DNA from: Euglena gracilis
Taxonomy: Eukaryota
DNA: 64,000 bases
Direction of reading: 5' to 3'
Assembly (NCBI GenBank): GCA_039621445.1
Contig: CP154954.1
Coordinates: 26,238,954 to 26,302,953, forward strand
The position numbers were made by a program, and so were the translations under genes. Positions 27,434-64,000 of the stretch are shown piece after piece (within the stretch, counting starts at the first letter, position 1; the number at the start of each line of letters is the position of its first letter). The notes beneath the pieces were generated by a model that had not been told where the DNA came from, did not search any database, and saw only the letters and a program-made list of their open reading frames with translations.

Positions 27434-27494
27434 ATGCCGCGGTGGAGTCTGTGGCTCCTCCTGCTGCTGTGGCTGATGCCAGGCCCCGAAGCAG
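27434..27494 (+). CDS. Mucin-like Thr/Ser/Pro-rich secreted protein, exon 1 (signal peptide)
   Basis: ACCACCATG; MPRWSLWLLLLLWLMPGPEA, a hydrophobic signal-like peptide; phase-1 G|GTGTGC donor matches the phase-1 acceptor at 28966. Confidence 0.75.
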
Positions 27495-28965
27495 GTGTGC
27501 CCCTTCCGTCGATGGTTGTGAGAGGGGCGGGGGGGGGGGCGCACGTTCCTGTGGCTGGCTTCATCGTGGATGCGCGTATGCCATCTGCTTTGCATCTGTA
27601 TGAATCGCATTGAACCATCGGATTGTCAATCTGCAACCACAGAAGTGACCAGCCCCCCCCCCCCCAGCATCCAAGCCAAAGTGTTGGATCTGGGTCAGGG
27701 ATTTTCCTTCCGCCGGCCTCTGCCAACGGGGCTGCGGCCCCCCTTCCCCGGCCCCAGGGTCCCGAAATAAACTCTGGACAAATTTATATTTATAATAAAT
27801 ATTTTTAGATATATTAGATATTATATTTAGCTATAACAAATATATTCAGAAGAATGGTTGACATTGGTATTTTTCAGGGTTTGAGGGTTTTTTTTTGCTG
27901 CTTTAAGATCAAACCAGTCGAATTTGGGCTTTTCTTTGCTACCAGCCAGCCTTTTCCGGCATGCGGCTGAGCACACTGGACTCTGGGGGGGAGGGGTCAA
28001 GCCATGCGACCTCCCCAGTTGGCTGGTTGGCTGGATGAACCCTGTGGGGCCTTTGAGAAATCCCACCAGAGACCTAGAGATCTTGATGAAAGGCCACACA
28101 AGCTTGGACACAGCCCATCACGCTTCGTGCCCATCTCGATCTGAGAGAAAACTTACCCAAAATAGCAATAGAAAACACATTGACCCTCATACTTCCGACC
28201 ATGGAGGACAAAATTCATTGAAGGGTTTATATATTTATTGCCAAATTCTCAAAAAATACTTTTTGTGCCTCGATGGCCGTATATTGGCCCCCTGGGCCAC
28301 CTTGTCTTATGTTCAGTCCTGGCATGGAGCAATTCTGCTGGGACAAAAGAATGGGCATTCACCACAGTGGAGAACAGATCTGATTTCAGATTTTGATCAA
28401 ATTTGGAGGTTATTGTGAGGTGCGAAAGTCAACGTCACCGTCCAAAAAGTAAATGGCTTGCTTTGACCCTGAGGGGCACCGCGTCTTCAAATCACGAGAT
28501 ATCCACAGTTCTGTCACACAGTTCGTATTTTTGGACACATTTGGTTGCAATTTATTATTACGACATATATTCTGACTCAGAACTTGGTCTGTTTGTTTGT
28601 ACTGCTGTCGAGAATGTGTCTCGGGAAATATTTCGAACGAATGGAACGCAAAATGCGCAAGACTGCAAAACGTCGCATTTGCAAAACGTCATTGCAAAAC
28701 GCATTGCAAAACGTCGCAAACTGGCGACCGCATCGGGCTGACTGGGCGGCGCGCCTCCGAGCGCCCCAAACACTTTCTAATGCCACTGCCTCCCGTCCAC
28801 AGCCCCAACGTTGCTAATGGACACAGGGGCGCGAACTCGCGCGGAAAGCGCTGGTGGGCGTCGGTGGTCGCGGGGAACGGGATGGGGAGTGGGCAGGCGG
28901 CGGCGGGGCAGTTGAAGCCTTCAGCAAATCCCCTCCTTTCCGCCGGCCCCTCCATCCCGTCGCAG

Positions 28966-29065
28966 CCACCCCCACTCCGACGCCCACCACCACCACCACT
29001 CCGTCGGAAACGGACACCGCATCGGAGACGGCCACCCTCTCGCCGACTGTCTCCGCGACCCCGAC
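28966..29065 (+). CDS. Mucin-like protein exon 2
   Basis: Pyrimidine tract plus GCAG|; ATPTPTPTTTTTPSETDTASETATLSPTVSATPT; ends C|GGCCAGGGTCGG (nonconventional, phase 2). Confidence 0.8.
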
Positions 29066-30082
29066 GGCCAGGGTCGGGCCGGGAGGCTGCCTGTGTGCAG
29101 CGGTGCCCGTCCCCTTGCCACCCATTCCCCCACAAAGGTGCTTGCAAACCCTTTCGATGTGCTACGAATGGCACACTCAGGACTTTCAAAAAAAACAGCA
29201 ATTGCGTGGTTGCAGAAATGCCCCTGAGCCCACCACCTGTTGAGTGTGAGATTGCCTCCCTCCCCGTTTGTCGGATGCTCTTGTTGTGGATCTATGTTTT
29301 AGCCAGGAGGACCCTGTTCTGGACATTGGGTACCTTTCTTTTTGCTGCTTCATTCAGCATGAGCCAAGAGCTTTTTGAGCAAAACGTGTCGAGAGAAAAA
29401 TGCGCCATTTTGTTTTGTTTTTTTTTTACGTTAGAGTTTGCCTTTTTAGTCAATTGCAACCATACATTGTCCGTCTCTGTTGAATGGCTATCTGAATTTT
29501 GAATTGTAGAGGGGTGCTCATGTAATGGATGCTCGTTCTGTCAGAGGGGAGTTGCTCTTCTCTTTGGACCCTGCTGTTGTAACCCCCTCCCCCCCTTTCC
29601 CAACCCTCAGTTTGAAGGATTAGGTTTGGTGGGTCAGCTGAAGGGGGGGGGGGGTTATCAGTGAGGGGGATAAATCCAGGAACTGTTGGTGAAACTCGGG
29701 TCGGGCTCCCCGAAATGACCTCAGAACCCAAAACATCAGCTTCGCATTTTTTTTGAAAAAGTGTGGTTTTTTTTTCATTGTGGGGGTGGTGGTTATGGGA
29801 ATGCTGGTGGCGGATGGTACACAGGTTTTGTCACCGCTGGGGTGGTCACCGTGAAGGCAATTGAGAAAGCGATGAAGACTCTAACCCCACTCCCAATGAA
29901 ACAAAAGCGGAGTGGAGTGGATGTGTAAGTACAATTAACACACTAAAGCAGACAGCCAATAGACTAAAGCTTCGAGTGCGAGTCTGGCAAACCGTCTTGA
30001 GAATGATTTATCAGACTCTCTGGCGACTCTGTTGCCTTTTCCTTTCCGAGTGGCGGAAAGGTGCGGTTCCGGCCCTGCCTCC

Positions 30083-30559: not shown

Positions 30560-31069
30560 GACCAGAGACCTTTTTAACGTTTGGACTCCCGGTTGGGCCC
30601 TACCCCTTCCTCCCCCTCTCACTGAGTACCCCAGCGATGCATGGGAAGCCCGTCAGTCCCCCCCAGATGTTGGGAGGGGGGTGTCCGGATCCCCCTCCTT
30701 GGTCTAAAATTGGAGAAAATTTTTCTTTTGCAGAAGTTTGCTTTCCCCCCACTTTTAAGCACATTTTTTGGGCGTTTTTATTTCTCATACGAGAAAAAAA
30801 TAAAAAACGAAAAATCTTCTGAAAGAAAGCCCAAGTTTTCCAGCCTCTGAGTTTGAGGTGGACCCCCAAGGGGGGTCTTTAAGCAACGCCCTGGGTGGGA
30901 GGGCTTCTGACCCCCCCCCAGTCTGTGTTAGGAGGCGGTCCGGACCCCCCCTCAGGATTTATCATACATCCCTGGACCCTACTGCCCCCCCCCAACCCCC
31001 CCTCCAGGGGGGTGGACAGATGGGTGCCAACTCCCCCTCCTTGGGTCTCAAGGATAAACCTCTGACAAC

Positions 31070-31450
31070 AACTCCTACCAGCACCACCACCAGCACCCCC
31101 AGTGCCAGCATAACAAGCTCGGACACGGCGACTCCTACACGCACCTCCACCCGCACCCGCACCGCCACCATCACGTCAACAACTACTGCCACCCCCACCG
31201 CCACCGCGACCTCCACCGGCACCTCCACCCGCACCCGCACAGCCACCATCACGTCGACGGTGACGGCCACCCCCACCACCACCGCAACCTCCACGGGCAC
31301 GCGCACCCGCAGCGCCACCATCACGTCCACGACCACCGCCACCGCCAGCCCCACCGCGACCACCAGCATCACGAGCTCCTCCACGGCCACCCCGACCCCG
31401 ACCCGGACGTTCACCCGGAGCAGCTCCATCACCTCCACCACCTCCATGAC
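31070..31450 (+). CDS. Mucin-like protein exon 4 (3' end +/- 3 nt)
   Basis: CTCTGacaac|A acceptor, in frame; Thr-rich repeats; followed by CTGCTCACCTT, which pairs with AAGGTGGGTTGCAG at 37281-37294. Confidence 0.75.
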
Positions 31451-32894
31451 CGCTGCTCACCTTGACTGGCGGAATTCTCCCAGCAATCAGATATCTCGGG
31501 TGATACCCCTGACGTCACGCATTCCTCATAAGAGGTGCGAATTTCATTGATCAGATAGTGAGCCATTGTTGGAGGCTGCGAGTTATTGCGAAGATGGGGA
31601 TTTGGCATTTTTTTTATCCCTCTCAAACAACCCCCAAAAGCTAACCTTCCACTTTTACGACACCCAAATAATTCACTTGTGCCAAAAAAAAATTGGGTGA
31701 AACTCAGGATTTTTGGCATTCACTTCTCAGAAGATACCATATTTTTTGCCAAAAATGTTGGTTCAATGAAAGTGAATCAGTAGCGATGGGAGCCAAAATA
31801 CCAATTATGTAATATTTTTTGTAAGTAAAGAGTGCATGTTAGCGGGCATTTTGAGCTTGAAAACTTATCCAAGCAACACCCTTCTAAACTTCTGAGCCAG
31901 CAGGATTCTTAAGGCCCTCCCGGGGGGGGGGGGGCTTTAGACTCTCCAGTGGGGGAAGCGTATGGCAGCACCCGGGTCTGGCTTTCCAACTTTTCGGTCC
32001 TGTGGCCCCACAGAACTGCGCCGGATCCGGGCTAATTTTGTTGAATTCCGTTAGGATTGGAACTTATTTTTAGGAATAGGGTTAGGGTTAGGATTGGCGC
32101 GCCGAGAATGGCCGCATTTCGGACAGGAGTTAGGTCGCAAGTTAGGTCCCTGTTTCGGAAGACTCTTATGGTGCGCTCTTGTCAGGATTTTCCAAAATTC
32201 GGCCTACGTTCGGCTCCAAAGCGCATTGCCCCCCCTCCGCAAATGCTTTGCTTGATGGCATTTTTTTTGGGGGGTTGAGCCTAATAAAACACAGCCACCC
32301 GGAGACGTCATGGGATAAACCAACTGTCGCACGTGGGAGTGACTGTTTTTTTGTCCTTGCAAGAGCAAGCAAAGGTTCCCTCCAGTTTTCTTCGTTATTT
32401 TTTGGATGAGAAAATTGCTGACCCTGCTTTTGCTCTTTTGGGCACCAGCGCAGACCAGCTCAAAAGCCAAAACGTGCTGCATTTTCAAATTTTTTTTGTC
32501 TTGCGCCGCACGAGGGGTGCCTGTGGGCGCTTCCCCGGAGGGGGGTTATATTCGATTGCAAATTGGGGGGGTGTGCCTAATCCCAATCGGTAAACATGTT
32601 ACATTTCATTTTTGCACTTTATTTTTTGTCAGTTGTGGCTGCAAATTATCTGAACAGTTCTTTGTCAGCATCAGCAGCCAATCCATACAGTAAAAAGGGG
32701 CGTTGCATGGGATAACGTTGCAGCGAATGGGCATTTCAACAGAAGGTAAAGTGTTGATGGTGCAACATACATTCTTCATCTTCATGCTGGTATTCTTCAG
32801 GAAGGTCGGAATCATTCTTCCTTGGAGCCCAGAACATGGCAATATGCCTTGTGTGCAAGAGCAAAACAGCAGGGAAGCAACAGAGGAACACACC

Positions 32895-33638
32895 ACATAC
32901 CCACCTACGTTTTTACCTCCCTACTCACCCACCCACCTGCCTGCCTACCTGCCTGTCTACCTTCCTGTTTGCCAACCTGCTTGCCTGCCCACCTACCTAC
33001 CTACCTACCTACCTACCTACCTACCTGCCTACCTACCTACCTACCTATTTCCCTACCTACCTACCTACCTACCTACCTACCTACCTACCTACCTACCTAC
33101 CTACCTACCTACCTACCTACCTACCTACCTACCTACCTACCTACCTACCTACCTACCTACCTACCTACCTACCTGCCTACTTACTTACCTTCCTACCTAC
33201 CTGCCTACCTACCTGCCTGCCTGCCTGCCTGCCTACCTGCCTGCCTGTCTACCTACCTACCTACCTGCCTACCTACCTGCCTGCCTGCCTGCCCACCTAC
33301 CTACATTTTTACCTCCCTGACCTACCTACCTACCTGCCTGCCTACCTACCTCCCTCCCTCCCTCCCTCCCTCCCTCCCTCCCTACCTCCCTGCGTACCTA
33401 CCTACCTACCTACCTACCTACCTACCTACCTACCTACCTACCTACCTACCTACCTACCTACCTACCTACCTACCTACCTACCTACCTACCTACCTACCTA
33501 CCTACCTACCTACCTACCTACCTACCTACCTACCTGCCTACTTACTTACCTTCCTACCTACCTGCCTACCTACCTGCCTGCCTGCCTGCCTGCCCACCTA
33601 CCTACATTTTTACCTCCCTGACCTACCTACCTACCTGG

Positions 33639-33680
<42 letters not shown>

Positions 33681-33717
33681 ACCTGCCTGCCTGTCTACCT
33701 ACCTACCTACCTACCTA

Positions 33718-33757
<40 letters not shown>

Positions 33758-33990
33758 CCCACCTACCTACATTTTTACCTCCCTGACCTACCTACCTACC
33801 TGCCTGCCTACCTACCTACCTATCTCCCTCTCTCCCTCCCTCCCCACCTCCCTACCTCCCTGCCTACCTACCTACCTACCTACCCACCTACCTACCTACC
33901 TACCTACCTACCTACCTACCTACCTACCTACCTACCTACCTACCTACCTACCTGCCTGCCTGCCTACCTACCTACCTACCTACCTACCTA
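32895..33990. repeat. (CCTA)n/(CCTG)n compound microsatellite
   Basis: Direct reading; includes a higher-order repeat marked by CATTTTTACCTCCCTGA at about 33304, 33605, 33770. Confidence 0.95.
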
Positions 33991-34399
33991 ACCCCCCAAT
34001 ATTAGCAACCCTTTGGCCAATTTTTGGTCGGCCCAGATATAAGCAACCGGATGCCGGATGTTTAACTTTGGGAATCCGAAAATGGGCTCATATTTAGGGG
34101 TTGCTGAAATTTGGAATTCGCTGATTTCTGCCATTTTACTCTGTTTTTAATGAAAATTCCTTCATATCGTCCAGTCAGGGTTTGCTTATATTTGAGGGTT
34201 GCTTATATTCGGGTGGGGGGGGGGGTTCACCTTCCTCTACCTATATGCATACCTGCCAACCTGGCTGCCTTGTATCTGCCTGCCTGCCTGTTTGCCTGCC
34301 TGCCTGTCAGCCTGCCTGTCTGTATGCAATAGGTACCTCTTGGCCACCCCCCCCCCCCCCGGTCGGGGTTGCTAAGGTTGAACCTATAGCACTGACCGC

Positions 34400-35400
34400 G
34401 GATGCTGACTGGTGAACAGGACATGCCGCCTTCGCAGCCCTGAGAGATAATAGTATGGTGTGCGGCTAGTGAGTGTGGTGGTGGTAGTTAGGTCAGTCCT
34501 GCAGGCTGACCCAGCGGATGGCCTCCAGCCCCAAGAGGAAGCGATCATCGCTGTGAGTGTTCACAAGCGATTCGTATTCCCCAACGTAGTCAGGTCGGTG
34601 CCCCCGCGGGAATGCTGTCTTTGGTGCAGAGCCAGGTTTTCAGCGGCCCCACAGTCCCTCAACTCGGTTAATAGAGATTGTGCACCGACGGCTGCACAGC
34701 ACCTCGTGGCGCGTGAACACCCCACAGCCGTGCCCTGCCATGTGGTGGCACCGTGCACGTTGGCAGAAGCGCCCCGCCATCCAGGATGGCCCCGAAGAGT
34801 TTGCGCAAGTGCCCTGCCCCTCTTGGACAGTCAGCAGGCCGTGGCGGTGGATGCCTGCCAGCCCAGCTCTGTCTCGTCCACCTCCACCTTCACCAGGGCA
34901 CCCCCCCCCACGCCCTGCCATGGGAGATGTTCCGCTCCACCGGGATGGCAACTATGCAGCAAAATGCAGAGGTGCATTAGCTGCCGCCGCCCGCACTGGA
35001 TCAACTGCTCGATCTCCTCCGGGTTGTGGCCGCGCGACCGGACGAACGCCAGATGTAGCAGATCGTTCAGGCGCCAGGTTGTGTCGCGCACATTGCTAGT
35101 CAGGCTTTTGATTTGCACAGCCGCTTGGGGCGAAAGCGGCACGCAAGCCCCTGGTGTGAATGCAGCTCATTTTCCGGCAGCCAGCTGCAGCCGACTGCCA
35201 CTGTCCTGGGCCCCGTCCACACGGTGGGGGTCAGGCGCGAACAACGGGGACATGGAATCAACCTGTAGGACACCTCCAGGGAGGTGGTGCCATGCGGGTG
35301 AGAGAGAACATGTGCCAGATCGTGGAGGGAGAAGCGCACCACGACCCACGGACATTGCGTGGTCACTGCAGGGAAGTCAGCAAAGGTGACACTGAAAGAG
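34400..35400 (-). pseudogene. Possible decayed coding (retroelement-like) fragment in mucin intron 4
   Basis: Protein-like but frameshifted minus-strand pieces (LTSNVRDTTWRLNDLLHLAFVRS; LLTELRDCGAAENLALHQRQHSRGGTDLTTLGNTNRL); no diagnostic motif recognised. Confidence 0.25.
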
Positions 35401-36163
35401 AACGTCCACGCGCAGTGCCAGAACCTCAGGTCACCCCTCTAACCGGGAGGGGTGGCCAGGAAGTACATCTGCCATGTGTATCACACGTAGCTTTATATCT
35501 ATATCCATGTATCGACATGTTTATATACTTTTACCTATATTTACAGGAATCCTTCATAAAATTTGACCGGAAGGAATTGATAATTTATCTCTCAACAAAA
35601 GGAAAACAAAAGTTCTGAAAGCAGATGTTGCCCCCCAGGCACATGGGAATGTAAAAGGGAAGGAAACGAAGCACAAAATGTTAACAAATGCCCCCCCCAC
35701 CTACAAACCCCCTGGGTTATAGGATCTGGTTTGGTTGGTCGGCGGAAGAGGGGTTATAAGTCAAGGAATTGTTGCCAAAAATCCGATCCACCAAAATGAC
35801 TTCCCCAATTTGGCGATTTTCGGCAAATATGGCATTTTTGATTTTGTCAGTCTCAAGAAATTGCCAAAATATCAGTTTTTAGGTGGTTTGCAGCCGAAAA
35901 AATTGTCCTTGGCAACTTTCATTTTCTTCTCCAGGGGGGTTTATAGTCAAGGTTTGGCTGGTTGGCCTGGGGGGGGGGTATAGGTGGAGGGTTAAAAGTG
36001 GGGGGTTCATGAGTGGGGAGGTTAGGCTCTTTTGCACTCTTTGGACAGCTAAATAATCAAAACCCAAAATTTAATTTGATTTTATTTAACAAATTCAAAT
36101 AATAAAAATTCATACTGAAAGTGCGAAGAATATATATATATATTTATATATATATATATATAT

Positions 36164-36454
36164 GGCAGGTGGGAACTTCGAGACCCCCCCCCCCCCCGGG
36201 GGGGGTCTCGAACTTCACCCCGCGATGGACACCCGTTAATTGAAGGTATAGGGTTAGGTGCGCACATGCTGATTTGCGCTAATTGGCTACGTTGCGCTAA
36301 TCGGCTGTGTTGCGCAACACAGCCAATTAGCGCAACGTAGCCAATTAGCACAAATTAGCATGTGCACACCTAACCCTATACCTTCCATTAAGGGGGGTGT
36401 CCATCGCGGGGTGAAGTTCGAGACCCCGCCGGGGGTGGTCTCGAAGTTCCCACC

Positions 36455-36458
<4 letters not shown>
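36164..36458. mobile_element. Near-perfect 295-bp palindromic (foldback) element in (TA)n
   Basis: GGCAGGTGGGAACTTCGAGACC ... GGTCTCGAAGTTCCCACCTGCC; centre TGTTGCGCAACA at 36313/36314; TA repeats on both sides. Confidence 0.85.
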
Positions 36459-36499
<41 letters not shown>

Positions 36500-36522
36500 T
36501 ATATATATATATAGAGAGATAT

Positions 36523-36556
<34 letters not shown>

Positions 36557-36596
36557 GATATTCTATATATATATACTCTCTATATATATTGTCGGT

Positions 36597-36627
<31 letters not shown>

Positions 36628-37298
36628 CTATATATATATAATCTATATATTTTTTATATAATTCAGGTTCCCCCTTGTCAAAGCCCACCACCCCATTTAT
36701 TCTGTTTTGGGTCTATATTTTTAGCCAAATCAGCACCCCTGCTTCTTGCCCCTAAGTCAAACAGGAGGGGAGGTTCGGCGTTATGTTTTCTCTTTGGGCA
36801 GAATTCTAATGACTATGGGGTGAATATTCAGGAAGGGTATATTTTATCGAGGAAATCAAAAATCGCTGCTCTTAAAACACAGATAGTTTTTTATTTTTTA
36901 TCACATTTTGGAAGTTATATCTTCAAATGGAATTGCCGAGTTTTTTTTTTTAATGGAAAAGGTAAATGTGCACCCCACTCTCTCAAAGACCTCCCTTGGG
37001 ATTGTGGTTTGGCAATCAACATAACAAGCTATAGGAGAAGCAAGTATTTCAGTTTTCAGATTTCGTTAATTTTTGGGCATAAATTGACTGTTTTCTGTGT
37101 GGTGAAATGGTGCAATTGCATACAAAACTAATTAAAAAGGGAGAAATCAAATTGTTCCATCCTGAAATGGTGGTCCCTGGGGACAGCATTGGGGTGGTCC
37201 CCGGAAAATTTACATTGTTTTCTCAATGGCTTGAATGTTTGCATCCATATCTGGCTGAACCCCCCTCCCCCTGGGGGAAGAAGGTGGGTTGCAGAAGC

Positions 37299-37658
37299 AA
37301 CCGCCACAGAGACCGCAACCCCAACCCCAACACGTACTTTTACGGGGACGACCTCTCTCACGGGCACCTCCACCAGCACCCAAACCGCCACTGTCATCCC
37401 GACCCAAACTCCCAGCGCCACCATCACCTCCACAGGCACAGCGACGGCCACCGCCACGCCCACCAGCACTCCGACCCGGACCGCGACCTCCACAGCCAGC
37501 CCCACGGAGACTGACACGGTCACGAAGACGGACACCCCCACCGCCAGTGGCACCATGACCGTCATCCCCACCTTCACCCCGTCGCCCACCCCCACTCCCA
37601 CCCCCACCCCCACCCGTACCGCCACCGATACTTCCACCCCGACCACGACCAGAACCTC
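37299..37658 (+). CDS. Mucin-like protein exon 5 (ends +/- 4 nt)
   Basis: TATETATPTPTRTFTG...; downstream TGGGCCCTATTCA pairs with TGAATGGGCTCCA just before exon 6. Confidence 0.75.
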
Positions 37659-37870
37659 GACATGGGCCCTATTCATTATCACCTGATTTTTCTCTGATGG
37701 TTTGAGACGATTCAGTTGCTGGCCACCTCTTCTGGCAAGCTCCGACCAGCAGCAGAATATGTGGGGTTTTTTCTGGTGTAGCGTGCGACCCTGCAAGGTG
37801 CAGGTTGAGAATGACCCACCCACAATTTCCCCTTCCATCTGGGCAAACCATTGAATGGGCTCCAGCTCTC

Positions 37871-38077
37871 AACCGGCACCGCGACACCGACAACCAGCTC
37901 CACCCCCACCGCCACCGCCTCCAGCACCCCTACCGCTACCCCCTCCGCCACTCCCTCCGCCACCCCCTCCACCACAGGCACCGCCTCGGAAACCGACACT
38001 GCGACCCCTACCGCCACGCTGTCCAGCACCCCGACCCCCACCCCCACCAGCACCACCACACACACCGCCACTGCCAC
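37871..38077 (+). CDS. Mucin-like protein exon 6
   Basis: CCAGctctc|A start; TGTATPTTSSTPT...; ends C|ACCCTGGCATGTGGAG, phase 2. Confidence 0.8.
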
Positions 38078-38982
38078 ACCCTGGCATGTGGAGAATTTTT
38101 TTGTTTTGAGGTTTTTTGTTTTTTAAGGTTATGTTTTGGTTTTCGCAAGGACCACCCCTCCCCCCAGGGGCCACCTCTCCACAGCTGGGGTAAAAAACGA
38201 TTTGGTTGCAAGAACGCCTGGAAGTTTAAAATCTCAAAATTCAAAAGGGAACAGCAAGGGCAAAAGAGAATTGATTGCAGGCTGCCGCTCGTTCTGCAGA
38301 GATTGCCGCTCTTGTTCCCAGCGTTGCTTGGACTCAAGGGATCAAAAGGAGAGGTTGGAATCCCTGTGAAAGCCCCACCTATTCAGATTTTTCTGAGGAA
38401 CAGCATTTGACAAGTTGAATATGCCCTGGCATGTTTTTTGGTGGGGGTCCAGAGAGGGAAAGATCACCATCCTGTGCAAGCCCTGCGGTCTGCATTATCC
38501 CTCAGGATGTCGAGTAGTTTTTGAGATCGAGAATTGACCCAAAAAAGATGCACTCGGCCTGGTCCCCTCTTTCTTTGGTTCTTCAGACTTTTTTTTTGTG
38601 CAATGGGTGCCTCTCTTTTTGTTATTCCCACCCAATTTTTGATTTTTGTGATTTTCCATGTCTCTGGTGATCTCGGTGATTCTTTTTCATTTGACTCAAA
38701 GGGAGGGCTATTATTTAGGCTGTCAAGGTCGGTCCTCAGGGGCTTCATTATTTGTTGGGGGGGTTCCACCTGGGAAGAGAGGCAAAGCATGTGTTCTTAA
38801 AGCGCGGGTAGTATCATGCAGTTCACCCCCATTCTTTCATATCATTTCCCATCAACCCACATGTCTTCACCACCGCTGGGTCCAGGCCAGGTGTGTGGCC
38901 CCCCCTGCGCCGTGGGGCCTCAAAAAGAAGCCTGATAGCGACCCCCGGGGCACAGCGGCACCAGACTCCTGCGCCAGGCCCC

Positions 38983-52226: not shown

Positions 52227-52633
52227 CAGGCTTCTGCTTAAGTACTCCCCCGGGGGGGCTGGACTGCAGCTAGTCCAAATTTGGCTAGTGGGATTTCTAG
52301 CAGACCCCCCCCCCTAGCAAGTGAATTTTTTTTTCCAGTCTGCCAGTGACTGGCGCAAAGCGCCGGATTTTTTTGGGGGGGACCCCCAAAATGGCCAAAA
52401 AATGCCCGTTTTTTGGCCATTTTTGGGAATTTTTGGAACAAAATCAGCCAAAAACCTATTAAAAGCCTCATTTCCACCTCGGCGCACAGCGCAGGAGGAA
52501 ATTTTATTTCCAGTTGGGGGACCCCGGACCCCCCCCTCCCCCAGGGGGGAGGGGGGTCTAGCTAGTCCACTTTTTCTAGCTAGTCCAAATTTCCAGCCAG
52601 TGGACCCCCCCCGGGTCCTTGAGCAAAAGCCTG
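52227..52633. mobile_element. hAT-like MITE family B, intact
   Basis: TIR CAGGCTTCTGCTTAAG / CTTGAGCAAAAGCCTG; 8-bp TSD GTGCCAAC at 52219-52226 and 52634-52641. Confidence 0.9.
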
Positions 52634-52979
52634 GTGCCAACGGTGCAGCCTTGAAGCAAGGGGGTAAAGCCACAGTGCACAAGGCGCTGCATCCTAACCC
52701 CGAAGGAGTCCACTCCTAAAAAATACCATACCCCCCCTTGCTTCGGCTGCCCGAATGCTGTACCCCTCCATCAACTTAAAATCAAGTGCACAAAGCACAG
52801 AAATTATGTTTAAATGTACGTTTTGGGGGAGGGGTGTATTTTCGAGTGTGAAAAATATGCCCAAGTAATATTCCCCTCCAGCCCCTGACATCGGATACCC
52901 AAATAGTATTCCCAGGTATTTATTTATTTATATTTTGCTTGGGGTTTTGTTTCCAATCCCGCGCTCTGCTTCTGCCCCC

Positions 52980-53195
52980 ACCCCAACTGGCACGCCCACC
53001 GGCACACCGTCTGGCACCCCCACCAGCACCCCCTCGGCGACACCCTCCGGCACTCCCACTGCCACGCCGTCGGCAACACCAACCGGCACCCCCTCCGCAA
53101 CGCCATCCAACACGCCCACTAGCACACCTTCCGCAACACCCACTGGCACCCCATCCACCACCCCATCCGGGACACCCACGGATACCCCTTCGGCT
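52980..53195 (+). CDS. Mucin-like protein exon 15
   Basis: GCTCTGCTTCTGccccc|A; ends T|GCCCAGAAAGGAGCC. Confidence 0.8.
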
Positions 53196-54387
53196 GCCCA
53201 GAAAGGAGCCGGTGTTTAGGGGGGGTCCACTTCAGGGGGGGGGGGGTTCTATCCATATTGGTATTTCGTGGTTCGGGGGTTCTATCTATATTGGTATATA
53301 ATGGTATTTCGTTAAAAAAAACGATATTTTCACCCCCTCTTAGGGTCATATGAAATTTTTTCTGTTTCTGTGGCGTATGAATGTGGAAGAAATTGTTCTT
53401 TGAAGAGGTCACAATCTCATGCACCCCCCCCACTGGTAATGGTTTACCAAGAAATAGGTTTTGGTTGGGGGATGGGGGAGCCGTTGACCAGTTATATGAC
53501 AGTTTCGGGGGGGGGGCTAAATATGCAGACCTCGGTGGTTGTTTTCTTTTACAAAGGGTTTCTCGCAGATTTCAGTGTCTCAGCGTTTCGGTCTCTCATG
53601 GATCGCACCCTGCAGCCAGCTGACGACTTAGCCTGAATGCACACCTGTGGTCCCGGCCGCAGGTCACACCACTCCAGTGCAACCATACAGACCCCCCCCC
53701 CCAAGAGTGCGTCAGAGGCGGCCAAATTTTTTTCAGATTTGGTGAATTTTTCGAACATATTCCATATTCCATTTGCTCTGATTTGGAATCGGTAGAAATT
53801 TACTCCAGCAAAGCTTCAAAATCTATGATAAATAATATCTCATACAAGTTCACACAGAACCCTCCCCCGAGGGTTTTGGAATCATAAACAAGAAAGTGTT
53901 GAAGGTAAAGTACACAGAACTTTTAGAGTAGGCAGTGCTAACCTCATAACAATTTAGCAGACTGGAACAGCGGGAGCACTGGAAGTTGATCAGTGGGAGA
54001 AGAAAAAATGATAGATGGTCGAGCACATGCAGTTCACCAAATATTTCAAATAAATGAAGAAAATCCTGGGAGCCTAATGGGAGGGACCTGGGAAAAGGGA
54101 TCTGGGAGCAGGATGAGAGGTTGGACCTGAAGGGTACCCAAAGAAGAACTCGCCAGTTACCCGTTCGCTACCCCCCCCCTCCCCTAAAGCAATCCCAAAA
54201 TGGTAATTTTCCCCCTGGCCTTGAACTCCAGTTCGAGCGCTGAAATGGGTCGAGAAATTCTACCCAAGCAACAACAGAAGGAAAATAGCGCACCCCGTGC
54301 ATTTCCACTGGATTCACATACTTTGTGGATTTTTTCCCCGCCAACACCAGCAAACATGTCAGCCGTTATGGCTCTGCTTCTGCCTCC

Positions 54388-54759
54388 ACCCCAACTGGCA
54401 CGCCCTCCGCCACACCGTCCGCGACGCCAACCGGCACACCCTCCGCCACGCCGTCCGGCACCCCCACCACCACCCCATCCGCCACCCCAACCGCCACTCC
54501 AACCGCCACCCCTTCCGGCACGCCCACCACCACCCCATCCGCCACGCCCACCGGCACGCCTTCCGCCACACCGTCCGCCACGCCCACCGCCACACCGTCC
54601 GTGACGCCCTCCGGCACACCAACAACGACGCCCTCGGCCACTCCGACAGGCACGCCCTCCGCGACGCCGTCTGGCACCCCCACCAGCACACCGTCGGCGA
54701 CGCCCACCGGCACACCGTCCGCCACGCCAAGTGGGACCCCAACTGCCACCCCTTCAGCT
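54388..54759 (+). CDS. Mucin-like protein exon 16
   Basis: GGCTCTGCTTCTGcctcc|A; 372 nt; ends T|GCCCAGGACGGAGC. Confidence 0.8.
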
Positions 54760-55202
54760 GCCCAGGACGGAGCCCTATTGCTGTGTCGTATCCTCCCCCG
54801 CTCGGCGGATTGATATCCGCAAATTTCCCACAATTTCTGCAATTTTCCGCAATTTGCGCGATTTTCCGCAATTTCCCTGCAATTTCCACAAATTTTCTGC
54901 AATTTTCCCGCATTTTCCCCCCTTTCTGCAGTTTTCTTTGCATGAACCTGAAATGCAAAGGTAAAATGAGTTCCGGTCACTTCTCGAGCGTTTCATAAGG
55001 GCATCCAGGTGCTTTTTTTGCTTACCTCCCTCAAATAATACCCCCCCGGGTATTATTTTTTTTCGCCCGAAGTCCCGGCCCGAGGGGGTATTATTTGGGG
55101 GGTAATGGCACCCCAGAATTTTCCAAATCTTTGAAGCCCCGCAGGACCCAAAATAGTACCCAAAACCCCCTTTGGGGTCTTTTTTTTTCTTCTTCACTTT
55201 TT

Positions 55203-56373
55203 CATGAAATTTGGCATTTTTGGCGGCCAGACGATCCAGAAAAATAAATTTTTTCGTAATTTGTTGTCAGAGATTGTGATTCTTGGGTCGTTGGCCCGAA
55301 ATTGGGGGGGGTATTAATTCGGTCCCCGAAATCGGACCCCGAGGGGGGGGGTTGGGGGGGGTGCTATTGGGGGGAGTGTTTATTTTGCTGCATGCTTGCC
55401 AAAATTTGCCAAATTTTGCAAATTTTGAACAAATTTTGGCAAATTTTTGGCCTGTTTGTAGTTTTCCCCGAGTTCTGCTGGGAAATAATTTCGGACTGAG
55501 AAAATTTTAAATCCTGACCATATTCTACCTGATAACAAAGTTCTTGTCATTTTTTTTGCCATTTTTGGATGCTTCATCCAAGGAATTCCATATTTCCAGA
55601 ATCAGCATGTTCCCAAAATTACAAAAATTCATTTTCTTTTTTTCTTTTTGTTGGAATGAATGTGAATAACGGCTCAAAATTTACATCTATGTTGCAAAAT
55701 GGCCAAATTTGTGCAATTTTTTGAAGTCCCTTCCAGAGGAAGTGTGCCAACCCCCAAACCTGCAACTCCCGCAGTTTTTGCACAATTTTCCCACAGTTCT
55801 TCCGAAGACCTTTCATATCAATTCCCTCCCTGCTCCCTGCCAATTCCTCCGTTGGGGAAATCACTGAACTTATTTCCCTTGGTTTTAAACCTGCTTTTTT
55901 CCCTTTGGGCAGATGGCAAGTTGAATAATCATTTTGGTTGTTTGGTGGGCCGACCAGTCAGGCTTTGGGAAACCCCCAAACATAAGCGGCACCCTTAAAC
56001 TACCCTCCTCCCCCCTCTATGTCCAACAACCCCCCAATGTCGAACGACCCCCCCCCGGTTGAAGGACACTTTCTTCGGAGGTTTGGCCTGGTGCTGAGCG
56101 CCGGGCCGAAAAATTTTGTACCCAAAATCGGCCAAAAATCGGCCAAATGCCAATTTTTGTACTTTTTTTTGAGCAAAACAATATCAAATTGCCCAAATTT
56201 TTGGCGCAAAGCACAGGGCGTAAAGAAAAGATTGACCTTATTTGGGTCCCGGGAGCCCTCCAACCTTTTTTTTAGACCCTTTTAGACCCCCCAAATGCAA
56301 CTCAACCCACACGGTGTGTTTCGTTTCTTCGCTGTTTATATTTAGTATTATATGGTATATATAGTATTGTGTG

Positions 56374-56420
<47 letters not shown>

Positions 56421-59400
56421 TATTCACACACACATATTCACAGGCCGTATGTTTGGGATGTGTATTCCCTGGGGACGATTGTATCATTTCTTACCCTCCC
56501 TGCAGTTCCTTTCAAGTCACACCACCTTAAGAGCTCTGACTTAGGCGGCGCGAATTGCCCAAATTTTTTGCGATTTTTTGCACGCTTGGGGTGCGCGGGT
56601 TTCCGTTTACGAAACTCACTGTTATGTGCTCGAAATTTTGAGAGGATGGCACCAGCACAAAAATTTGGGTCGTTTTGAGTCCATTTTAGGCATTTTGACA
56701 AAGTGGCGATTTTGAGAATTTATGGTCGTTTTAGGGGGGGTTTTGGAAAACCCCCCTGGAACGCCCTGAAATTTTGAAAAACAGAAAACAGCCGGAGAAC
56801 ACCTGGCCACTGGAGCCCCGGTTGTTTGGCGATGTTGCTGGACCCCCCCCCCTCTGGAGGGGGGGTGACACAGTGTGGCAGGTGAAGAAGAGGCAACCGC
56901 TTAAGCAACCCGCGCATTTTTGAACCTCTCGTGAGTGCCGATGTCCAGTGACGGGGGAGGTGAACACACAGCACTGCCCAACAGATGCTACAATTTCTTG
57001 GAAGAGATGTTTTAAGCGGTAAATCGCGCAAAATGAGTTTTTGTGATGAAGAGATGCTGGCCTAACGGAGGGGACTGGACTGGGAATAACGTTAAAAACG
57101 AGTTACAACGGTTTACTGTGTACAGAAGTGATGATTCCTCAGGCGGAAACCCGCGCAGAAGGGTTTGAGAAAGAGAACAGTTCGTGTTTGTGGATGACAC
57201 GAGGGAGCGGGAAGTGGGAACGCGCAGAAACCTCCAGAAGTGGGTCATCACGTGAAGTTGTTAATGAACAGGTTTGGGGGAGCGGGAGGGGATTTTGGGT
57301 CGTTATTGAACGATGGCAGTGCGCGGTTATCCGCCTACTTCGTTTTTAGTTTGCGCGGGTTTCCGCACAGATGAGGTTTGGGCGGAAACCCGCGTGGAGC
57401 TTGTTGCTGTCCTGATGGGTTGTGTTTTGTGATGTTTTGGTGTCCCAAAGTGTCGGTGTCAGTGGTGACGTGTGGCGACATCGTTTTTGACAGTTGGGCG
57501 GGACAGGTTGAAAGGGAGCTGTGGCTGCTGCGCCGTGACAGCAAGCAACCGAGCAGGCGGAAACCCGCCTGGCATTTGAGCAGGAGGTGGACACCCTCCT
57601 CTGCAATTCGGACGCAGTAATGTTCCCCCTGGCCAGTGGTGAAGGGGTGGCTGCAGGGACAGCAGTGGAACGCACGTGTCAGTTGCCAGGCCGGGTGAGC
57701 TGCGGTAGAGAAGATGTTTTGTTACCGTCCCGAAAAACGGCCAAAAAACTGAGGTTGATTTCTCAGGAGGAACAAAAGCACCTCCCAGAGCCCTCCTCCT
57801 GGAACCCAACGGTCTTGGTGGCCCAAAATCAGGGTTTGGGGAAGGCTGACGAAGAAGTGATTCAAGATATGGACGGAGAAACTCCTGTTTCAGCAGTTGG
57901 TGGCAGCAGTCGAACAATTTCGGGGGGTTTTCGGAAGAAGTCCTCCAGGTTCTGAGAAAATCAAGGCCTTTTCAATTGTTTTTTGAAACAGTGTTACAGC
58001 ATTTTTCCTTTGAAAAGCCGCAGTTTTTGCTGAATTTCAGGCAAAATGCCCAAACCACCTCTTTTTTTCTGGCTCTTCTTCCTTTGGGGTCGGCAACATG
58101 CCTCCGGAGGAGGGAACGGTGGTCTCCACCGTCAGAAGCCGTGTGGGAGGGGGATAAACCAGAAGGCGGTCGTTCTCAACCAACGCCGGGTCAATGTTTG
58201 ACCCGGTGCATCTGGCTTCCATCCATGTAACCACCCTCAGCACAAGTGTGTCCGGTCTTTCTGGAGACCACCCCTGCTCTGAGTGCCCAAGTTTAAGGGC
58301 TGGCCGTCTCTCCTCGGTTGGTCAACCCCTGCTGGCGCAATCTCCTCTCCCTGGTTTCCGTAAACCTCCACCCCTCAAACTCACTACAACACGCCAGACA
58401 CCATTCAGTTACAAACTGCCTGGCGACCTGGCAACAAAGTCTGTCGTCCGTGTCCTCCGCAAAGATTCACGCCTGTGACTGGTGTCACAAGTAGGGTTGC
58501 AAAACTTTGCCAACAAACCAGCACAGTTTATTTCTAGGGTGGTTTCCATCTTCCACCCCCATCCCATCGTCCACAAATGCTTTGCTTTTTCTGCTCACCC
58601 TTAACCCGGCCACACGGATTCCCGCTTACACCCAGTCGCCTTACACTCACCACGTATACACACATACCAGGCGGATTCCCTCCCACCAGTCATCAACTGT
58701 TTGTGTTATTGTACGCGGTAATCCGCCATGCTTTGTTCTCACTTTTAGGCGGTAATCCGCGTTACAAGTTCAATCTACGCGGATATCCGCCTAACATTTA
58801 ACTCCGTCGTCTGACACCTCTTCTTTCGTTTTACGCGGTTATCCGCACACACTTGCAATGTTCATTCGTCTCTCAAATACTGTTATTAACGTAAACCATG
58901 GACACACAGCCCCATGTCACACCCATTCAAAGTTGGTGTTTTTCCAGCCATTTCAAACCGTTCTAGTACACTCCCAAATCACACAACTCACACACAATCG
59001 GAAATCGGCTAAGCGGAATACCGCGCAAAACCACTTCTGTTAAATTTTGGCCCAAAGCCGCCACACACCCCTCTCAGCTCAAATCTTTTTGCCCTTTTAG
59101 GTGTTTTTAAAACAGCCAAAAAAAACGCATGAAATTTGGCATTTTTGGCGGCCAGACGATCCAGAAAAATATTTTTTTTCGTAATTTGTTGTCAGAGATT
59201 GTGATTCTTGGGTCGTTGGCCCGAAATTGGGGGGGGGGGTATTAATTCGGTCCCCGAAATCGGACCCCGAGGGGGGGTTGGGGGGGGGGTGCTATTGGGG
59301 GGAGTGTTTATTTTGTTGCATGCTTGCCAAAATTTGCCAAATTTTGCAAATTTTGAACAAATTTTGGCAAATTTTTGGCCTGTTTGTAGTGTTTTCCCCG

Positions 59401-60441
59401 AGTTCTGCTGGGAAATAATTTCGGACTGAGAAAATTTTTCATCCTGACCATAGTCTACCTGATAACAAAGTTTTTGTCATTTTTTTTTGCCATTTTTGGA
59501 TGCTTCATCCAAGGAATTCCATATTTCCAGAATCAGCATGTTCCCAAAATTACAAAAACTCATTTTCTTGGACCTTTTTGTTGGAAAGAATGTGAATAAC
59601 GGCTCAAAATTTACATCTATGTTGCAAAATGGCCAAATTTGTGCAATTGTTTGAAGTCCCTTCCAGAGGAAGTGTGCCAACCCCCAAACCTGCAACTCCC
59701 GCAGTTTTTGCACAATTTTCCCACAGTTCTTCCGAAGACCTTTCATATCAATTCCCTCCCTGCTCCCTGCCAATTCCTCCGTTGGGGAAATCACTCAACT
59801 TACTTCCCTTGGTTTTAAGCCTGCCTTTTTCCCTTCGGGCAGATGGCAAGTTGAATAATCATTTTGGTTGTTTGGTGGGCCGACCAGTCAGGCTTTGGGA
59901 AACCCCCAAACATAAGCGGCACCCTTAAACTACCCTCCTCCCCCCTCTATGTCCAACAACCCCCCAATGTCGAACGCCCCCCCCCCCCCCGGTTGAAGGA
60001 CACTTTCTTCGGAGGTTTGGCCTGGTGCTGAGCGCCGGGCCGAAAATTTTTGTACCCAAAATCGGCCAAAAATCGGCCAGATGCCAATTTTTGTACTTTT
60101 TTTTGAGCAAAACAATATCAAATTGCCCAAATTTTTGGCGCAAAGCACAGGGCATAAAGAAAAGATTGACCTTATTTGGGTCCCGGGTGCCCTCCAACCT
60201 TTTTTTTTTTTAGACCTTTTTAGACCCCCCACATGCAACTCAACCCACGGTGTGTTTCGTTTCTTCGCTGTTTATATTTAGTATTATATGTTATATATAG
60301 TATTGTATGTTATATATATATATATTCACACACACATATTCACAGGCCGTATGTTTGGGATGTGTATTCCCTGGGGACGATTGTATCATTTCTTACCCTC
60401 CCTGCAGTTCTTTTCAAGTCACACCACCTTAAGAGCTCTGA
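55203..60441. repeat. About 1.33-kb direct repeats (55203-56539 and 59128-60441) flanking a 2.6-kb unique segment
   Basis: Both copies start CATGAAATTTGGCATTTTTGGCGGCCAG and end CACCTTAAGAGCTCTGA; a third copy starts at 63121. Confidence 0.85.
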
Positions 60442-60899
60442 GCGCTGGGGGTGGCAGATGGCCAAAAGGACATTTGTGTAGGGAATTTGGAGAGCGGAAG
60501 ATTCTGCCACTTTTTTTTGTGTGCCTTGGAACCTTGGGGTAACAAGGGGGAACATTCCCATCCCATGAAACTCTGGGGATTCAGAAAAGAAAGGATTGGA
60601 ACTCATTTACACAATTTTCTTTGCGGAATTGCACCAGTGCACCAGTCATCTCGGCGTTCATACATCTTCGTCATTCTTGTGAGTCGATTTTTCGCTTCTC
60701 AGAAATACACTGCATAATCGGGTGACAACGTTCACGTTTTATTCTTTTATAACTTATTGCACATCCTGCATCCATCCATCAAATAAAAGAGTATTGTTTG
60801 CTCACTGCTAAAAAAGAGTTATGGCAACGCCTTCGTCGAACACCTGATTTACATGTCTGACCAACAACACAAAGGTCTGCATGAAAGCTGACCCCAAAC

Positions 60900-61160
60900 C
60901 AGGGATTTTTTTAAGTTTGGACCCCCGGGGGGGGATGGGTCCGCCGGACCCCCTCCCCCCGGGGGGGGGTCCCCCCAGAGGGGGGTGGGATATACTTTTC
61001 GGCGCCGCAGGCGCTGAAAAAATTCTATTTTTAGCACTTTTCGCGATTTTCGGCCATTTTTTTGTGGGTCCCCCTCCCCCCCTCCCCCCCGGGGGGGGCC
61101 TCCCCAGGGGGTGGGTGGGTGGGGGGACCCCCCTCCCCCCCGGTCTTAAAAAAATCCCTG
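60900..61160. mobile_element. hAT-like MITE family C, intact
   Basis: TIR CAGGGATTTTTTTAAG / CTTAAAAAAATCCCTG; 8-bp TSD CCCCAAAC at 60892-60899 and 61161-61168. Confidence 0.9.
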
Positions 61161-62284
61161 CCCCAAACACACAATTTCTGTTGCCATAGTTTAAGGCCTT
61201 TTTTTTGTGTTTCAAAATGCTTGTGTTCAACGTTTTCCCAGAGTGAGCCTGAAGGGAACCTGGCAGTTTCCCATCTGGGAAATTGTCAAGGTCCCTGGTA
61301 CCAGTCAATCTGTCACAGCAGGAAGTTGTCAGGATTTCCGGTGCCATGCATCACTTTAGCCGGAGGACATCCCATCCCCCACCAGGGAGGGGGGGGCTTT
61401 TTCCAGCGTCGAACCGCCCTCCCCCCATTGACGAGTTTTAGCTATTTTCCAGCTGCCAATTTTTTATTTTATTTTTGGGGTGTGGTCAATGGGATAAAAA
61501 TGGGGAGGAGATGGGTCGGAAATGGGCGGGCTAGGATAATTTTCGGTCAAACAATCGACTTCTTGCATAATTGGCAGTTTTTTGGGGGCATTTTTTGCAG
61601 TTTCGATTTTTGGCACCCATGTCGTCGTCCCCGGTTCGGGGCTTGTTTCAGCCCTGTGGGGGGGTGGGTCAGCCAGCAGCCTTTTTTTCCCAACCAGCCC
61701 ATATGTTCCAGCCTCTCAGCTGGACCCCCTGGATGGTTTAGCGACGCCCTGTTCTGGTGTCGTACCAACCTCTCAGCTGACAGCTTCCGGGGGGGGGGGT
61801 GAAATTTGGTTTGCCTTTGTCCCCAGGAGGGGGGGGTTCTTGACCAGATTCCAAGTGGGTGTATTCGTGGGACAGGGCTGCCCCATGAGGTGCCTTCTGG
61901 CCTAGGATAGACCCGCCCACAAGTTCCTTCCCGACTGAGGGGACTCGTCCACTGACTTGGGAACCGCACCTGCTGGGGTCATGGACTGGAGTAACCAGTG
62001 CGTCGTCACGGTGAAGAAGACCCCCCACCCAACTAAAGCGGGGTATGTGCCTGGCAGCCACTTGGTGGACAGCGTCGTAAACGAAGTCAGTCCCGCCAGG
62101 CTCTGGCCACCTCCACGCACACAGACAAAAAGGGCCAGAGGCGAAAAGCAGCGCCAGGCCAGAATAAGAGATAAAAGGCGTCAAACCAAAAGCCGCAGTG
62201 CAGACAAGGGGGGAGATGTTCCTTTGGAGGACATTCTTATCTCAGCTTCCTTTCATCATCTTTTGGAACCCATTTCCATTCAGA

Positions 62285-64000
62285 GCTCTGCTTCTGCCCC
62301 CACCCCAACCGGAACGCCGTCCGCCACACCGTCCGCGACGCCAACCGGCACACCCTCCGCCACGCCGTCCGGCACCCCCACCACCACCCCATCCGCCACC
62401 CCAACCGCCACTCCAACCGCCACCCCTTCCGGCACGCCCACCACCACCCCATCCGCCACGCCCACCGGCACGCCTTCCGCCACGCCGTCCGCCACGCCCA
62501 CCGCCACACCGTCCGTAACGCCCTCCGGCACACCAACAACGACGCCCTCGGCCACTCCGACAGGCACGCCCTCCGCGACGCCGTCTGGCACCCCCACCAG
62601 CACACCGTCGGCGACGCCCACCGGCACACCGTCTGCCACGCCGAGTGGGACCCCAACTGCCACCCCTTCAGCTGCCCAGGACGGAGCCCTATTGCTGTGT
62701 CGTATCCTCCCCCGCTCGGCGGATTGATATCCGCAAATTTCCCACAATTTCTGCAATTTTCCGCAATTTGCGCGATTTTCCGCAATTTCCCCGCAATTTC
62801 CACAAATTTTCTGCAATTTCCCCGCATTTTCCCCCCTTTCTGCAGTTTTCTTTGCATGAACCTGAAATGCAAAGGTAAAATGAGTTCTGGCCACTTCTTG
62901 AGCGTTTCATAAGGGCATCCAGGTGCTTTTTTTGCTTACCTCCCTCAAATAATACCCCCCCGGGTATTATTTTTTTTTTCGCCCGAAGTCCCGGCCCGAG
63001 GGGGGGGGTATTATTTGGGGGGTAATGGCACCCCAAAATTTTCCAAATCTTTGAAGCCCCGCAGGACCCAAAATAGTATCCAAAACCCCCTTTGGGGTCT
63101 TTTTTTTTCTTCTTCTTTTTCATGAAATTTGGCATTTTTGGCGGCCAGACGATCCATAAAAAATATTTTTTTTCGTAATTTGTTGTCAGAGATTGTGATT
63201 CTTGGGTCGTTGGCCCGAAATTGGGGGGGGGGGTATTAATTCGGTCCCCGAAATCGGACCCCGAGGGGGGGGGCTGGGGGGGTGCTATTGGGGGGAGTGT
63301 TTATTTTGTTGCATGCTTGCCAAAATTTGCCAAATTTTGCAAATTTTGAACAAATTTTGGCAAATTTTTGGCCTGTTTGTAGTGTTTTCCCCGAGTTCTG
63401 CTGGGAAATAATTTCGGACTGAGAAAATTTTAAATCCTGACCATATTCAACCTGATAACAAAGTTCTTGTCATTTTTTTTTGCCATTTTTGGATGCTTCA
63501 TCCAAGGAATTCCATATTTCCAGAATCAGCATGTTCCCAAAATTACAAAAATTCCTTTTCTTGGACCTTTTTGTTGGAAAGAATGTGAATAACGGCTCAA
63601 AATTTACATCTATGTTGCAAAATGGCCAAATTTGTGCAATTTTTTTGAAGTCCCTTCCAGAGGAAGTGTGCCAACCCCCAAACCTGCAACTCCCGCAGTT
63701 TTTCCACAATTTTCCCACAGTTCTTCCAAAGACCTTTCATATCAATTCCCTCCCTGCTCCCTGCCAATTCCTCCGTTGGGGAAATCACTCAACTTATTTC
63801 CCTTGGTTTTAAACCTGCTTTTTTCCCTTTGGGCAGATGGCAAGTTGAATAATCATTTTGGTTGTTTGGTGGGCCGACCAGTCAGGCTTTGGGAAACCCC
63901 CAAACATAAGCGGCACCCTTAAACTACCCTCCTCCCCCCTCTATGTCCAACAACCCCCCAATGTCGAACGCCCCCCCCCCCCCCCCGGTTGAAGGACACT
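62285..64000. repeat. Recent duplicate of about 54371-56070 (exon plus start of intron)
   Basis: Near identity at an offset of about 7.9 kb through the exon and at least 1.3 kb of the following intron. Confidence 0.9.
62302..62673 (+). CDS. Mucin-like protein exon 17 (near-copy of exon 16; gene continues beyond the window)
   Basis: GCTCTGCTTCTGccccc|A; 372 nt, almost identical to exon 16; same donor sequence. Confidence 0.8.

Follow-up and report, generated by a model that had tools for sequence, protein, structure and literature searches.

The window considered here is a repeat-rich stretch of 64,000 nucleotides (contig CP154954.1, positions 26,238,954 to 26,302,953; 44-75% G+C, no N), which carries on its forward strand a gene interrupted by a long series of introns without GT-AG borders. 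The gene product is in all likelihood a secreted, mucin-like protein rich in threonine, serine and proline (T/S/P) and built from repeated exons. The introns that follow the first one are very probably euglenid nonconventional introns, so that the finding is real but already known; the gene adds instances of such introns and no new principle. Judged by the intron type alone, the host would be a euglenid, most likely a Euglena species. An original prediction, made by reading the letters of this stretch, had proposed 15 consecutive introns with complementary ends (introns 2 to 16) after a single GT-AG intron.

Sixteen open blocks, nearly all composed of Thr, Ser, Pro, Ala and Gly, follow each other on the forward strand in shifting frames within 28966-62676, and just one small block of this type is found on the minus strand. 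Upstream of them, exon 1 provides an ATG and a hydrophobic stretch, the translation of which suggests a signal peptide. Joined at the modelled borders, exons 5-17 (37300..62673) give 1028 codons with no stop and a composition of 39% T, 22% P, 15% S, 11% A and 8.5% G, and in the joined translation a short repeat motif is continuous over the junctions. Regarding relatives of the protein, a database search with exon 6 for spliced relatives scored none of 2428 candidates of near length; at longer lengths the single match, P0001 (63% identity over 68% of the query), has glycosyl-hydrolase and malectin domains and was rejected as a compositional match that does not represent this gene.

The evidence that carries the assignment comes from sequences in which exons are already joined. 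The comparison covered 39430-56300 and drew on two contig runs (X1 and X2) and two raw RNA runs (X21 and X24), joints being judged among the 15 that were listed of 84. At least five exon-exon joins were found among those listed, at introns 8, 11, 12, 13 and 15 (Table 1), with shorter sides of 29-97 letters, all of them in frame, in phase 0 and without GT-AG or GC-AG borders. Single contigs of 330 and 326 nt span from exon 11 through the whole of exon 12 into exon 13. Coverage is 10-49 fold in bins holding exons but about 0-3 fold in intron bins free of repeats, a pattern expected of RNA. In a survey of runs over a 10-kb stretch, 19 runs guessed to be RNA contain 7-13% of its words, the modelled exons making up about 15%, and one other run contains 76%; none of these listed runs is on record as RNA. 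Two predicted donors coincide with ends in the contigs, since the aligned part of one X1 contig stops at 42815 (intron 9) and whole X1 and X2 contigs stop at 54759 (intron 16); no join was seen for introns 9 and 10 among the rows listed.

Table 1. Exons and introns of the gene. Hyphens set off the spacers at the intron ends and a slash marks the border with the downstream exon; joins are given as last > first exon letter.
Feature	Coordinates	Strand	5' end	3' end/exon	Remarks
Exon 1	27434..27494	+			ATG and hydrophobic stretch; signal-peptide-like by its translation
Intron 1	27495..28965	+	GT...	...AG	C-rich pyrimidine tract before AG
Intron 2 (predicted)	29066..30082	+	GGC-CAGGG...	...CCCTG-CCTCC/A	Best in-frame candidate, 9-pair run in register; chance alternatives exist
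Intron 3 (tentatively predicted)	30560..31069	+	GAC-CAGAG...	...CTCTG-ACAAC/A	In frame, fits the code
Intron 4 (gap between T/S/P blocks)	31437..37299	+			About 5.8 kb, borders not placed; (TACC)n array inside
Exon 5	37300-37646	+			T/S/P-rich
Intron 5 (predicted)	37647..37846	+	GAC-CAGA...	...TCTG-GGCAA/A	Phase 2; 4/8 pairs in register
Exon 6	37847-38077	+			T/S/P-rich
Intron 6 (predicted)	38078..38982	+	ACC-CTGGC...	...GCCAG-GCCCC/A	Swapped CTG...CAG
Exon 7	38983-39136	+			T/S/P-rich
Intron 7 (predicted)	39137..41022	+	GCC-CAGGG	CCCTG-CACCC/A	
Exon 8	41023-41103	+			T/S/P-rich
Intron 8	41104..42620	+	GTT-TTAGGCGG	CCGCCTAA-ATCTC/G	Without CAG/CTG; RNA join 41103>42621, GT..TC, X2 (1 contig), shorter side 79 letters, slidable by 1
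Exon 9	42621-42815	+			T/S/P-rich
Intron 9 (predicted)	42816..44284	+	ACC-CAGGGCTGAGC	GCTCAGCCCCTG-CCCCC/A	
Exon 10	44285-44430	+			T/S/P-rich
Intron 10 (predicted)	44431..46966	+	GTC-CAGGG...		Acceptor 46966 or 46972, both in frame
Exon 11	46967-47192	+			T/S/P-rich
Intron 11	47193..47824	+	GTC-CAGTG	CACTG-CAGCC/A	RNA join 47192>47825, GT..CC, X1 and X2, shorter sides 97 and 93 letters, not slidable
Exon 12	47825-47980	+			T/S/P-rich
Intron 12	47981..49114	+	TCC-CAGGG	CCCTG-CCCCC/A	RNA join 47978>49113, CC..CC, slidable by 2, X1, X2 and 1 raw read of X21
Exon 13	49115-49483	+			T/S/P-rich
Intron 13	49484..51763	+	GTT-TCGGGCGCTGCAAA	TTTGCAGCACCCAA-ATTCC/G	Without CAG/CTG; RNA join 49483>51764, GT..CC, X1 (2 contigs) and X2 (2 contigs)
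Exon 14	51764-51982	+			T/S/P-rich
Intron 14 (predicted)	51983..52979	+	GCC-CAGGA	TTCTG-CCCCC/A	
Exon 15	52980-53195	+			T/S/P-rich
Intron 15	53196..54387	+	GCC-CAGAA	TTCTG-CCTCC/A	RNA join 53193>54386, CT..CT, X1 (1 contig), shorter side 29 letters; one-letter difference
Exon 16	54388-54759	+			T/S/P-rich
Intron 16 (predicted)	54760..62301	+	GCC-CAGGA	TTCTG-CCCCC/A	7.5 kb
Exon 17	62302-62673	+			T/S/P-rich

The five introns with RNA joins share one geometry. Their helix between the two intron ends runs from +4 to -6, with a 5' spacer of 3 nt and a 3' spacer of 5 nt in all five; intron 12 comes into this register when its borders are slid by 2, a shift without effect on the mRNA. A pyrimidine ends both the upstream exon and the intron, and a purine opens the downstream exon, again in five of five; the first intron letter is a purine in four of them and T in intron 12. 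The pyrimidine before the 5' cut may merely reflect the third positions of T/S/P/A codons in phase-0 introns, because published knock-ins saw no requirement on the donor side (PMC12501133). Positions +4, +5 and +6 form all three pairs with -6, -7 and -8 in introns 8, 11, 12 and 15, and two of three in intron 13 (C/A mismatch at +5/-7). The triplets CAG/CTG, or the broader CDG/CH'G, are present in 3/5 RNA-supported introns (11, 12 and 15) and in nine of the twelve modelled introns 5-16, absent in introns 8 and 13 and swapped in intron 6, the commonest ends in the gene being (G/A)CC-CAGGG ... CCCTG-CCCCC/ACC.

Pairing in this fixed register exceeds what random positions give: at least six of eight pairs are formed in 11 of the 12 modelled introns 5-16 vs 4.4% of random position pairs, and all eight in intron 8 vs 0.1%. 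Set against the 3' ends of the remaining eleven introns, the 5' end of intron 8 gives 3-5 pairs, as compared with 8/8 for the 3' end of intron 8 itself; in intron 13 pairs are formed at 12/14 positions. In predicted intron 6, 7/8 pairs are in register, none of the 99 registers tried being better, and its duplex reaches -17.6 kcal/mol (z -2.3). Folding of the intron ends had been proposed, for the terminal 25 nt, as a check on the original prediction; done with the 22-nt ends, it gives strong duplexes in introns 8 and 13 (-24.8 and -20.9 kcal/mol, each reached by 0/300 shuffles), whereas the CAG/CTG introns, taken one by one, have modest values (z -0.6 to -2.9). Beyond the CAG/CTG core, pairing changes on both strands between paralogous introns: the pair +7/-9 is G-C in introns 7, 9 and 12, T-A in 11, A-T in 15 and G.T in 14 and 16, and +8/-10 is G-C or A-T. 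The counts of pairs in register and the duplex values have the limit that many of these introns are paralogous, so that only about four to five count as independent cases. No second copy of the intron 6, 8 or 13 ends was found in the window at up to 4 mismatches, and there is thus no evidence here for ends of a repeated element.

These results bear out much of what had been claimed from the letters alone. The sequences given for introns 1, 6, 8 and 13 are all four present as described, and introns 6, 8 and 13 do keep the +4/-6 register with the numbers of pairs given above. The fixed register and the pyrimidine/purine borders are right, now backed by RNA for five introns, and equal the published euglenid model. 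Starts with GT that are not followed by AG ends are borne out by RNA joins in introns 8, 11 and 13 and predicted for intron 10. The swap of CTG and CAG in intron 6, read as structurally tolerated, corresponds to a configuration shown to be spliceable in PMC12501133. A reading of raw sequence alone had recovered the register and the border rules correctly, i.e., it had rediscovered a known splicing code.

Intron 1 is predicted to be of another kind. Its ends are unpaired (duplex -8.9 kcal/mol, z 0.08 vs shuffles) and, with its GT-AG borders and C-rich tract, its sequence would fit a conventional spliceosomal intron of U2-type. Further downstream, the gap of intron 4 contains a (TACC)n microsatellite of about 268 copies at 32914-33990, detected with TRF.

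If the gene model were wrong and conventional GT-AG or GC-AG introns lay nearby, the paired ends could be the product of chance or a by-product of duplication. A free search for an in-frame helix in the +4/-6 register does return runs of 6-14 pairs around every block pair, a second search, with the published triplet code, yields numerous candidates for each intron, and several acceptor regions have an AG after a pyrimidine-rich stretch, e.g., just upstream of 62284. With chance candidates so abundant, both searches were rejected as stand-alone evidence, and borders placed from the letters carry little weight, so that transcript evidence is needed. This evidence is supplied by the five contig joins, which lack GT-AG borders and two of which fall precisely on coordinates of the original prediction. 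To these are added the duplexes of introns 8 and 13, beyond the reach of shuffling, and the pairs that change on both strands between paralogues; a wrong gene model is highly improbable. It is likewise hardly credible that the joins arose otherwise than by RNA splicing, be it from a processed or collapsed DNA copy, from contig misassembly of the T/S/P repeats or from template switching during reverse transcription. Such origins could be favored by exons that are 75-98% alike, by the fact that 10 of the 15 listed joint rows are repeat-related with short sides, and by the RNA status of X1 and X2, which is a guess. Nevertheless, coverage separates exons from introns, joins recur in both X1 and X2, which come from different studies, one is also present in a raw read of X21, itself on record as RNA, and all joins share frame-keeping and register; direct repeats at the joins measure just 0-2 nt, too short for template switching, against which they argue.

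It is a more substantial, though still unlikely, possibility that exons 1-4 and exons 5-17 belong to two genes, or that exons are missing, and that the chain of 15 introns does not lie in one transcript. No convincing paired ends were found for intron 4 among the in-frame candidates, exons 1-4 may thus form a transcript separate from exons 5-17, exons 2-4 differ in composition from exons 5-17 (R higher, P lower), and the RNA comparison started at 39430, downstream of exons 1-4. Conversely, both groups lie on the same strand and are T/S-rich, and the open frame that reaches exon 5 from 37132 lacks a start codon and requires upstream exons. Either outcome leaves the nature of the introns unaffected. 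Regarding the original prediction, five of its fifteen consecutive introns have RNA joins and the full count is that of a model, in which intron 4 is the weak member; contigs do join the T/S/P blocks at five introns, and a single transcript of all blocks is not borne out as far as the link between exons 1-4 and 5-17 is concerned.

Besides intron 4 and the abundance of chance helices, several points weigh against the assignment to euglenid nonconventional introns in one gene. RNA joins cover 5/15 claimed nonconventional introns, the RNA status of X1 and X2 is a guess, and X21 and X24, which are on record as RNA and of which about 5-6% each was read, yielded one junction read in total, nearly all of their placed reads falling in repeats or poly-C/G. 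The join at intron 15 fits 53196-54387 on the condition that the RNA strain has C and not T as its last exon letter, a change that would be synonymous and amounts to a one-letter difference from the window. For intron 14, an X1/X2 contig pair (53191, two extra letters, 52978) shows a join of the same family type, the left side of which matches the end of exon 15 and not that of exon 14, so these contigs probably come from a paralogous exon pair outside the window and support intron 14 no more than indirectly. Introns 8 and 13 contain no C-D-G/C-H'-G triplet at any allowed slide, yet they are RNA-joined in the canonical register, and the mismatch of intron 13 falls on a pair, +5/-7, that is formed in all 55 introns of PMC4770533. 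Lastly, neither an Rfam scan of the whole window nor a Pfam scan of 66 of the 104 open reading frames (ORFs) of at least 140 codons gave any hit, i.e., no RNA or protein family confirmed the organism; the 38 ORFs outside the Pfam scan are repeat frames that overlap one another and frames antisense to the T/S/P exons.

As for the mechanism by which euglenid nonconventional introns would be removed from this gene, the 5' and 3' ends of each intron would pair in the pre-mRNA, in a helix that leaves out the first 3 nt and the last 5 nt of the intron. This terminal helix would juxtapose the exon ends, and the distance from its end would set the cuts, the 5' one 3 nt away and the 3' one 5 nt away, the downstream exon opening with a purine. 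The exon-intron units themselves were probably multiplied through tandem and partial duplication, so that many of the introns are paralogues; the similarity of paralogous units is confined to the exons and about 18-25 nt of the intron ends. Two recent partial exon duplications are found, 44285-44424 / 47037-47176 (98.6%), the upstream edge of which is the intron 9 acceptor, and 49264-49456 / 51760-51952 (97.4%), with an upstream edge 4 nt from the intron 13 acceptor; each edge lies mid-exon in the other copy. Larger ones, 54371-56056 / 62285-63980 and 55203-56539 / 59128-60441 / 63121-64000 (97%, 93% and 97%), include exon 16/17 and the start of the next intron, and probably mean either that the gene runs past the window end or that the assembly repeats a unit. 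The gene probably does continue beyond the window, because exon 17 (62302-62673), a 97% copy of exon 16, belongs together with exon 16 to a 97% duplication at least 1.7 kb long.

Other features of coverage and repeats were noted along the gene. The ten remaining joint rows listed (sides of 18-23 letters) connect poly-C/G stretches or dispersed repeats, or result from a collapse of the repeat inside exon 16; they misfit the gene model and were counted neither way. Between 39937-39960 and 43084-43105, raw reads of X21 and X24 show numerous joints in both the forward and the backward direction, with poly-C/poly-G loose ends and sides of 18-23 letters, which are probably a low-complexity or repeat artefact. 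The bin 40556-41118, which holds exon 8, has a depth of 0 in X1 and 2.6 in X2, neighbouring exon bins being covered in both, and the exon 8-9 join was seen in X2 only; skipping of exon 8 under some conditions or a gap in the contigs may be the cause. Intron stretches at 39430-40555, 44497-45059, 45623-46185, 47312-47874, 51816-52941 and 54631-55756 reach depths of hundreds to thousands in X1/X2 with many partial placements and are dispersed repeats abundant in RNA-like runs; a sequence that precedes the gene, 15860-16854, is 80-88% identical to three of these stretches. A simple repeat lies at 39272-39396, inside predicted intron 7. Far upstream, a tandem array at 8536-12245 consists of about 107 copies of a 35-bp C-rich unit (84% matches), with 73-75% G+C, a strong excess of C over G on the forward strand and long open frames.

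Introns 8 and 13 raise the question of what is read at the splice sites. In PMC12501133 (Nomura et al., 2025), knock-ins define the code 5'-N3CDG-/-CH'GN5-6 followed by R, with pairing beyond the triplet needed; 61.2% of annotated nonconventional introns have this signature, and the other 38.8%, which were counted, not dissected, are the group into which introns 8 and 13 would fall. These two have the longest and strongest helices in the gene, with 8 contiguous pairs in intron 8 and 12/14 in intron 13. It can tentatively be proposed, at somewhat less than even chances, that they are removed by the same nonconventional machinery as the others, a long helix in the exact 3-nt/5-nt register substituting for the triplet. 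If true, the machinery would measure the distance from the helix end and would not read CAG/CTG, the published code being a frequent solution and not a requirement, and new splice sites could form wherever such a helix arises, as would be suggested by the acceptor of intron 13, which lies 4 nt inside the edge of the 97.4% partial exon duplication. Against such a substitution, published single-base and compensatory mutants show that base identity matters: one changed base in CAG or CTG suffices to abolish splicing and, among the complementary second-position pairs tested, CTG-CAG alone worked (PMC12501133). The earlier claim that the stem register and not the CAG sequence specifies splicing is therefore supported insofar as introns 8 and 13 are joined without the triplet, and opposed by these knock-ins. 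For its extension to an intron of 7.5 kb (predicted intron 16), the one indication is the stop of contigs at the predicted donor, 54759. With about a dozen paralogous introns that change pairs on both strands, one intron with swapped CTG/CAG and two triplet-free introns with long helices, the gene is a compact natural test set, which could help to decide the question posed in 2016 of whether CAG/CTG is a recognition signal or a fingerprint of the origin of these introns (PMC4770533).

The known systems with which the gene can be compared are chiefly those of euglenids. Nonconventional introns, which make up 71.8% of E. agilis introns (PMC12501133), are removed after conventional ones (PMC6221363) and are released as circles by a machinery that is unknown and thought to be distinct from the spliceosome (PMC11282704, PMC12501133); removal of the introns of this gene would be expected to follow the same course. 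According to Milanowski et al. 2014/2016 (PMC3935182, PMC4770533), positions +4..+6 pair with -8..-6, mostly as CAG/CTG (in 33/55 introns in PMC4770533), with pyrimidine/purine borders and compensatory changes; by this share and the 61.2% given above, the triplet is common among such introns without being obligatory. The gene shares with this model the variable non-GT-AG borders, the +4..+6/-8..-6 helix and the compensatory changes, and its predicted intron 6 has the described U/A variant at +5/-7; it differs in intron 8, where the core pairs are T-A, T-A and A-T. Moreover, the series compared here consists of paralogous introns within one gene, whereas there it consisted of orthologues from different strains. 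With the code of PMC12501133 the gene has in common the 3-nt 5' spacer, the 5-nt 3' spacer and the exon-initial purine (5/5 RNA-supported introns) as well as pairing beyond the triplet, and the CTG-CAG of predicted intron 6 is the configuration shown there to be spliceable.

For E. gracilis itself, Gao et al. 2024 (PMC11170887) report CCAGG at +3..+7 and CCTG at -9..-6, which the commonest ends here match, together with conventional introns that have C-rich pyrimidine tracts, like that of intron 1. Introns termed intermediate/nonconventional resemble introns 8, 11 and 13 (by RNA) and 10 (predicted), which begin with GT and end with TC, CC or CT; forms starting with GT are regarded as ordinary nonconventional introns, the GT arising from the purine preference at position 1 (PMC4770533, PMC3935182), and a separate class for them is not needed here. 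Outside euglenids, hemistasiid diplonemids (PMC12621601) likewise have introns without GT-AG borders and with extensive pairing of the intron ends. In contrast to the 3' ends of these diplonemid introns, for which no strong sequence bias is reported, most introns of the gene have the CAG/CTG of Euglena, and this difference favors their assignment to the euglenid type.

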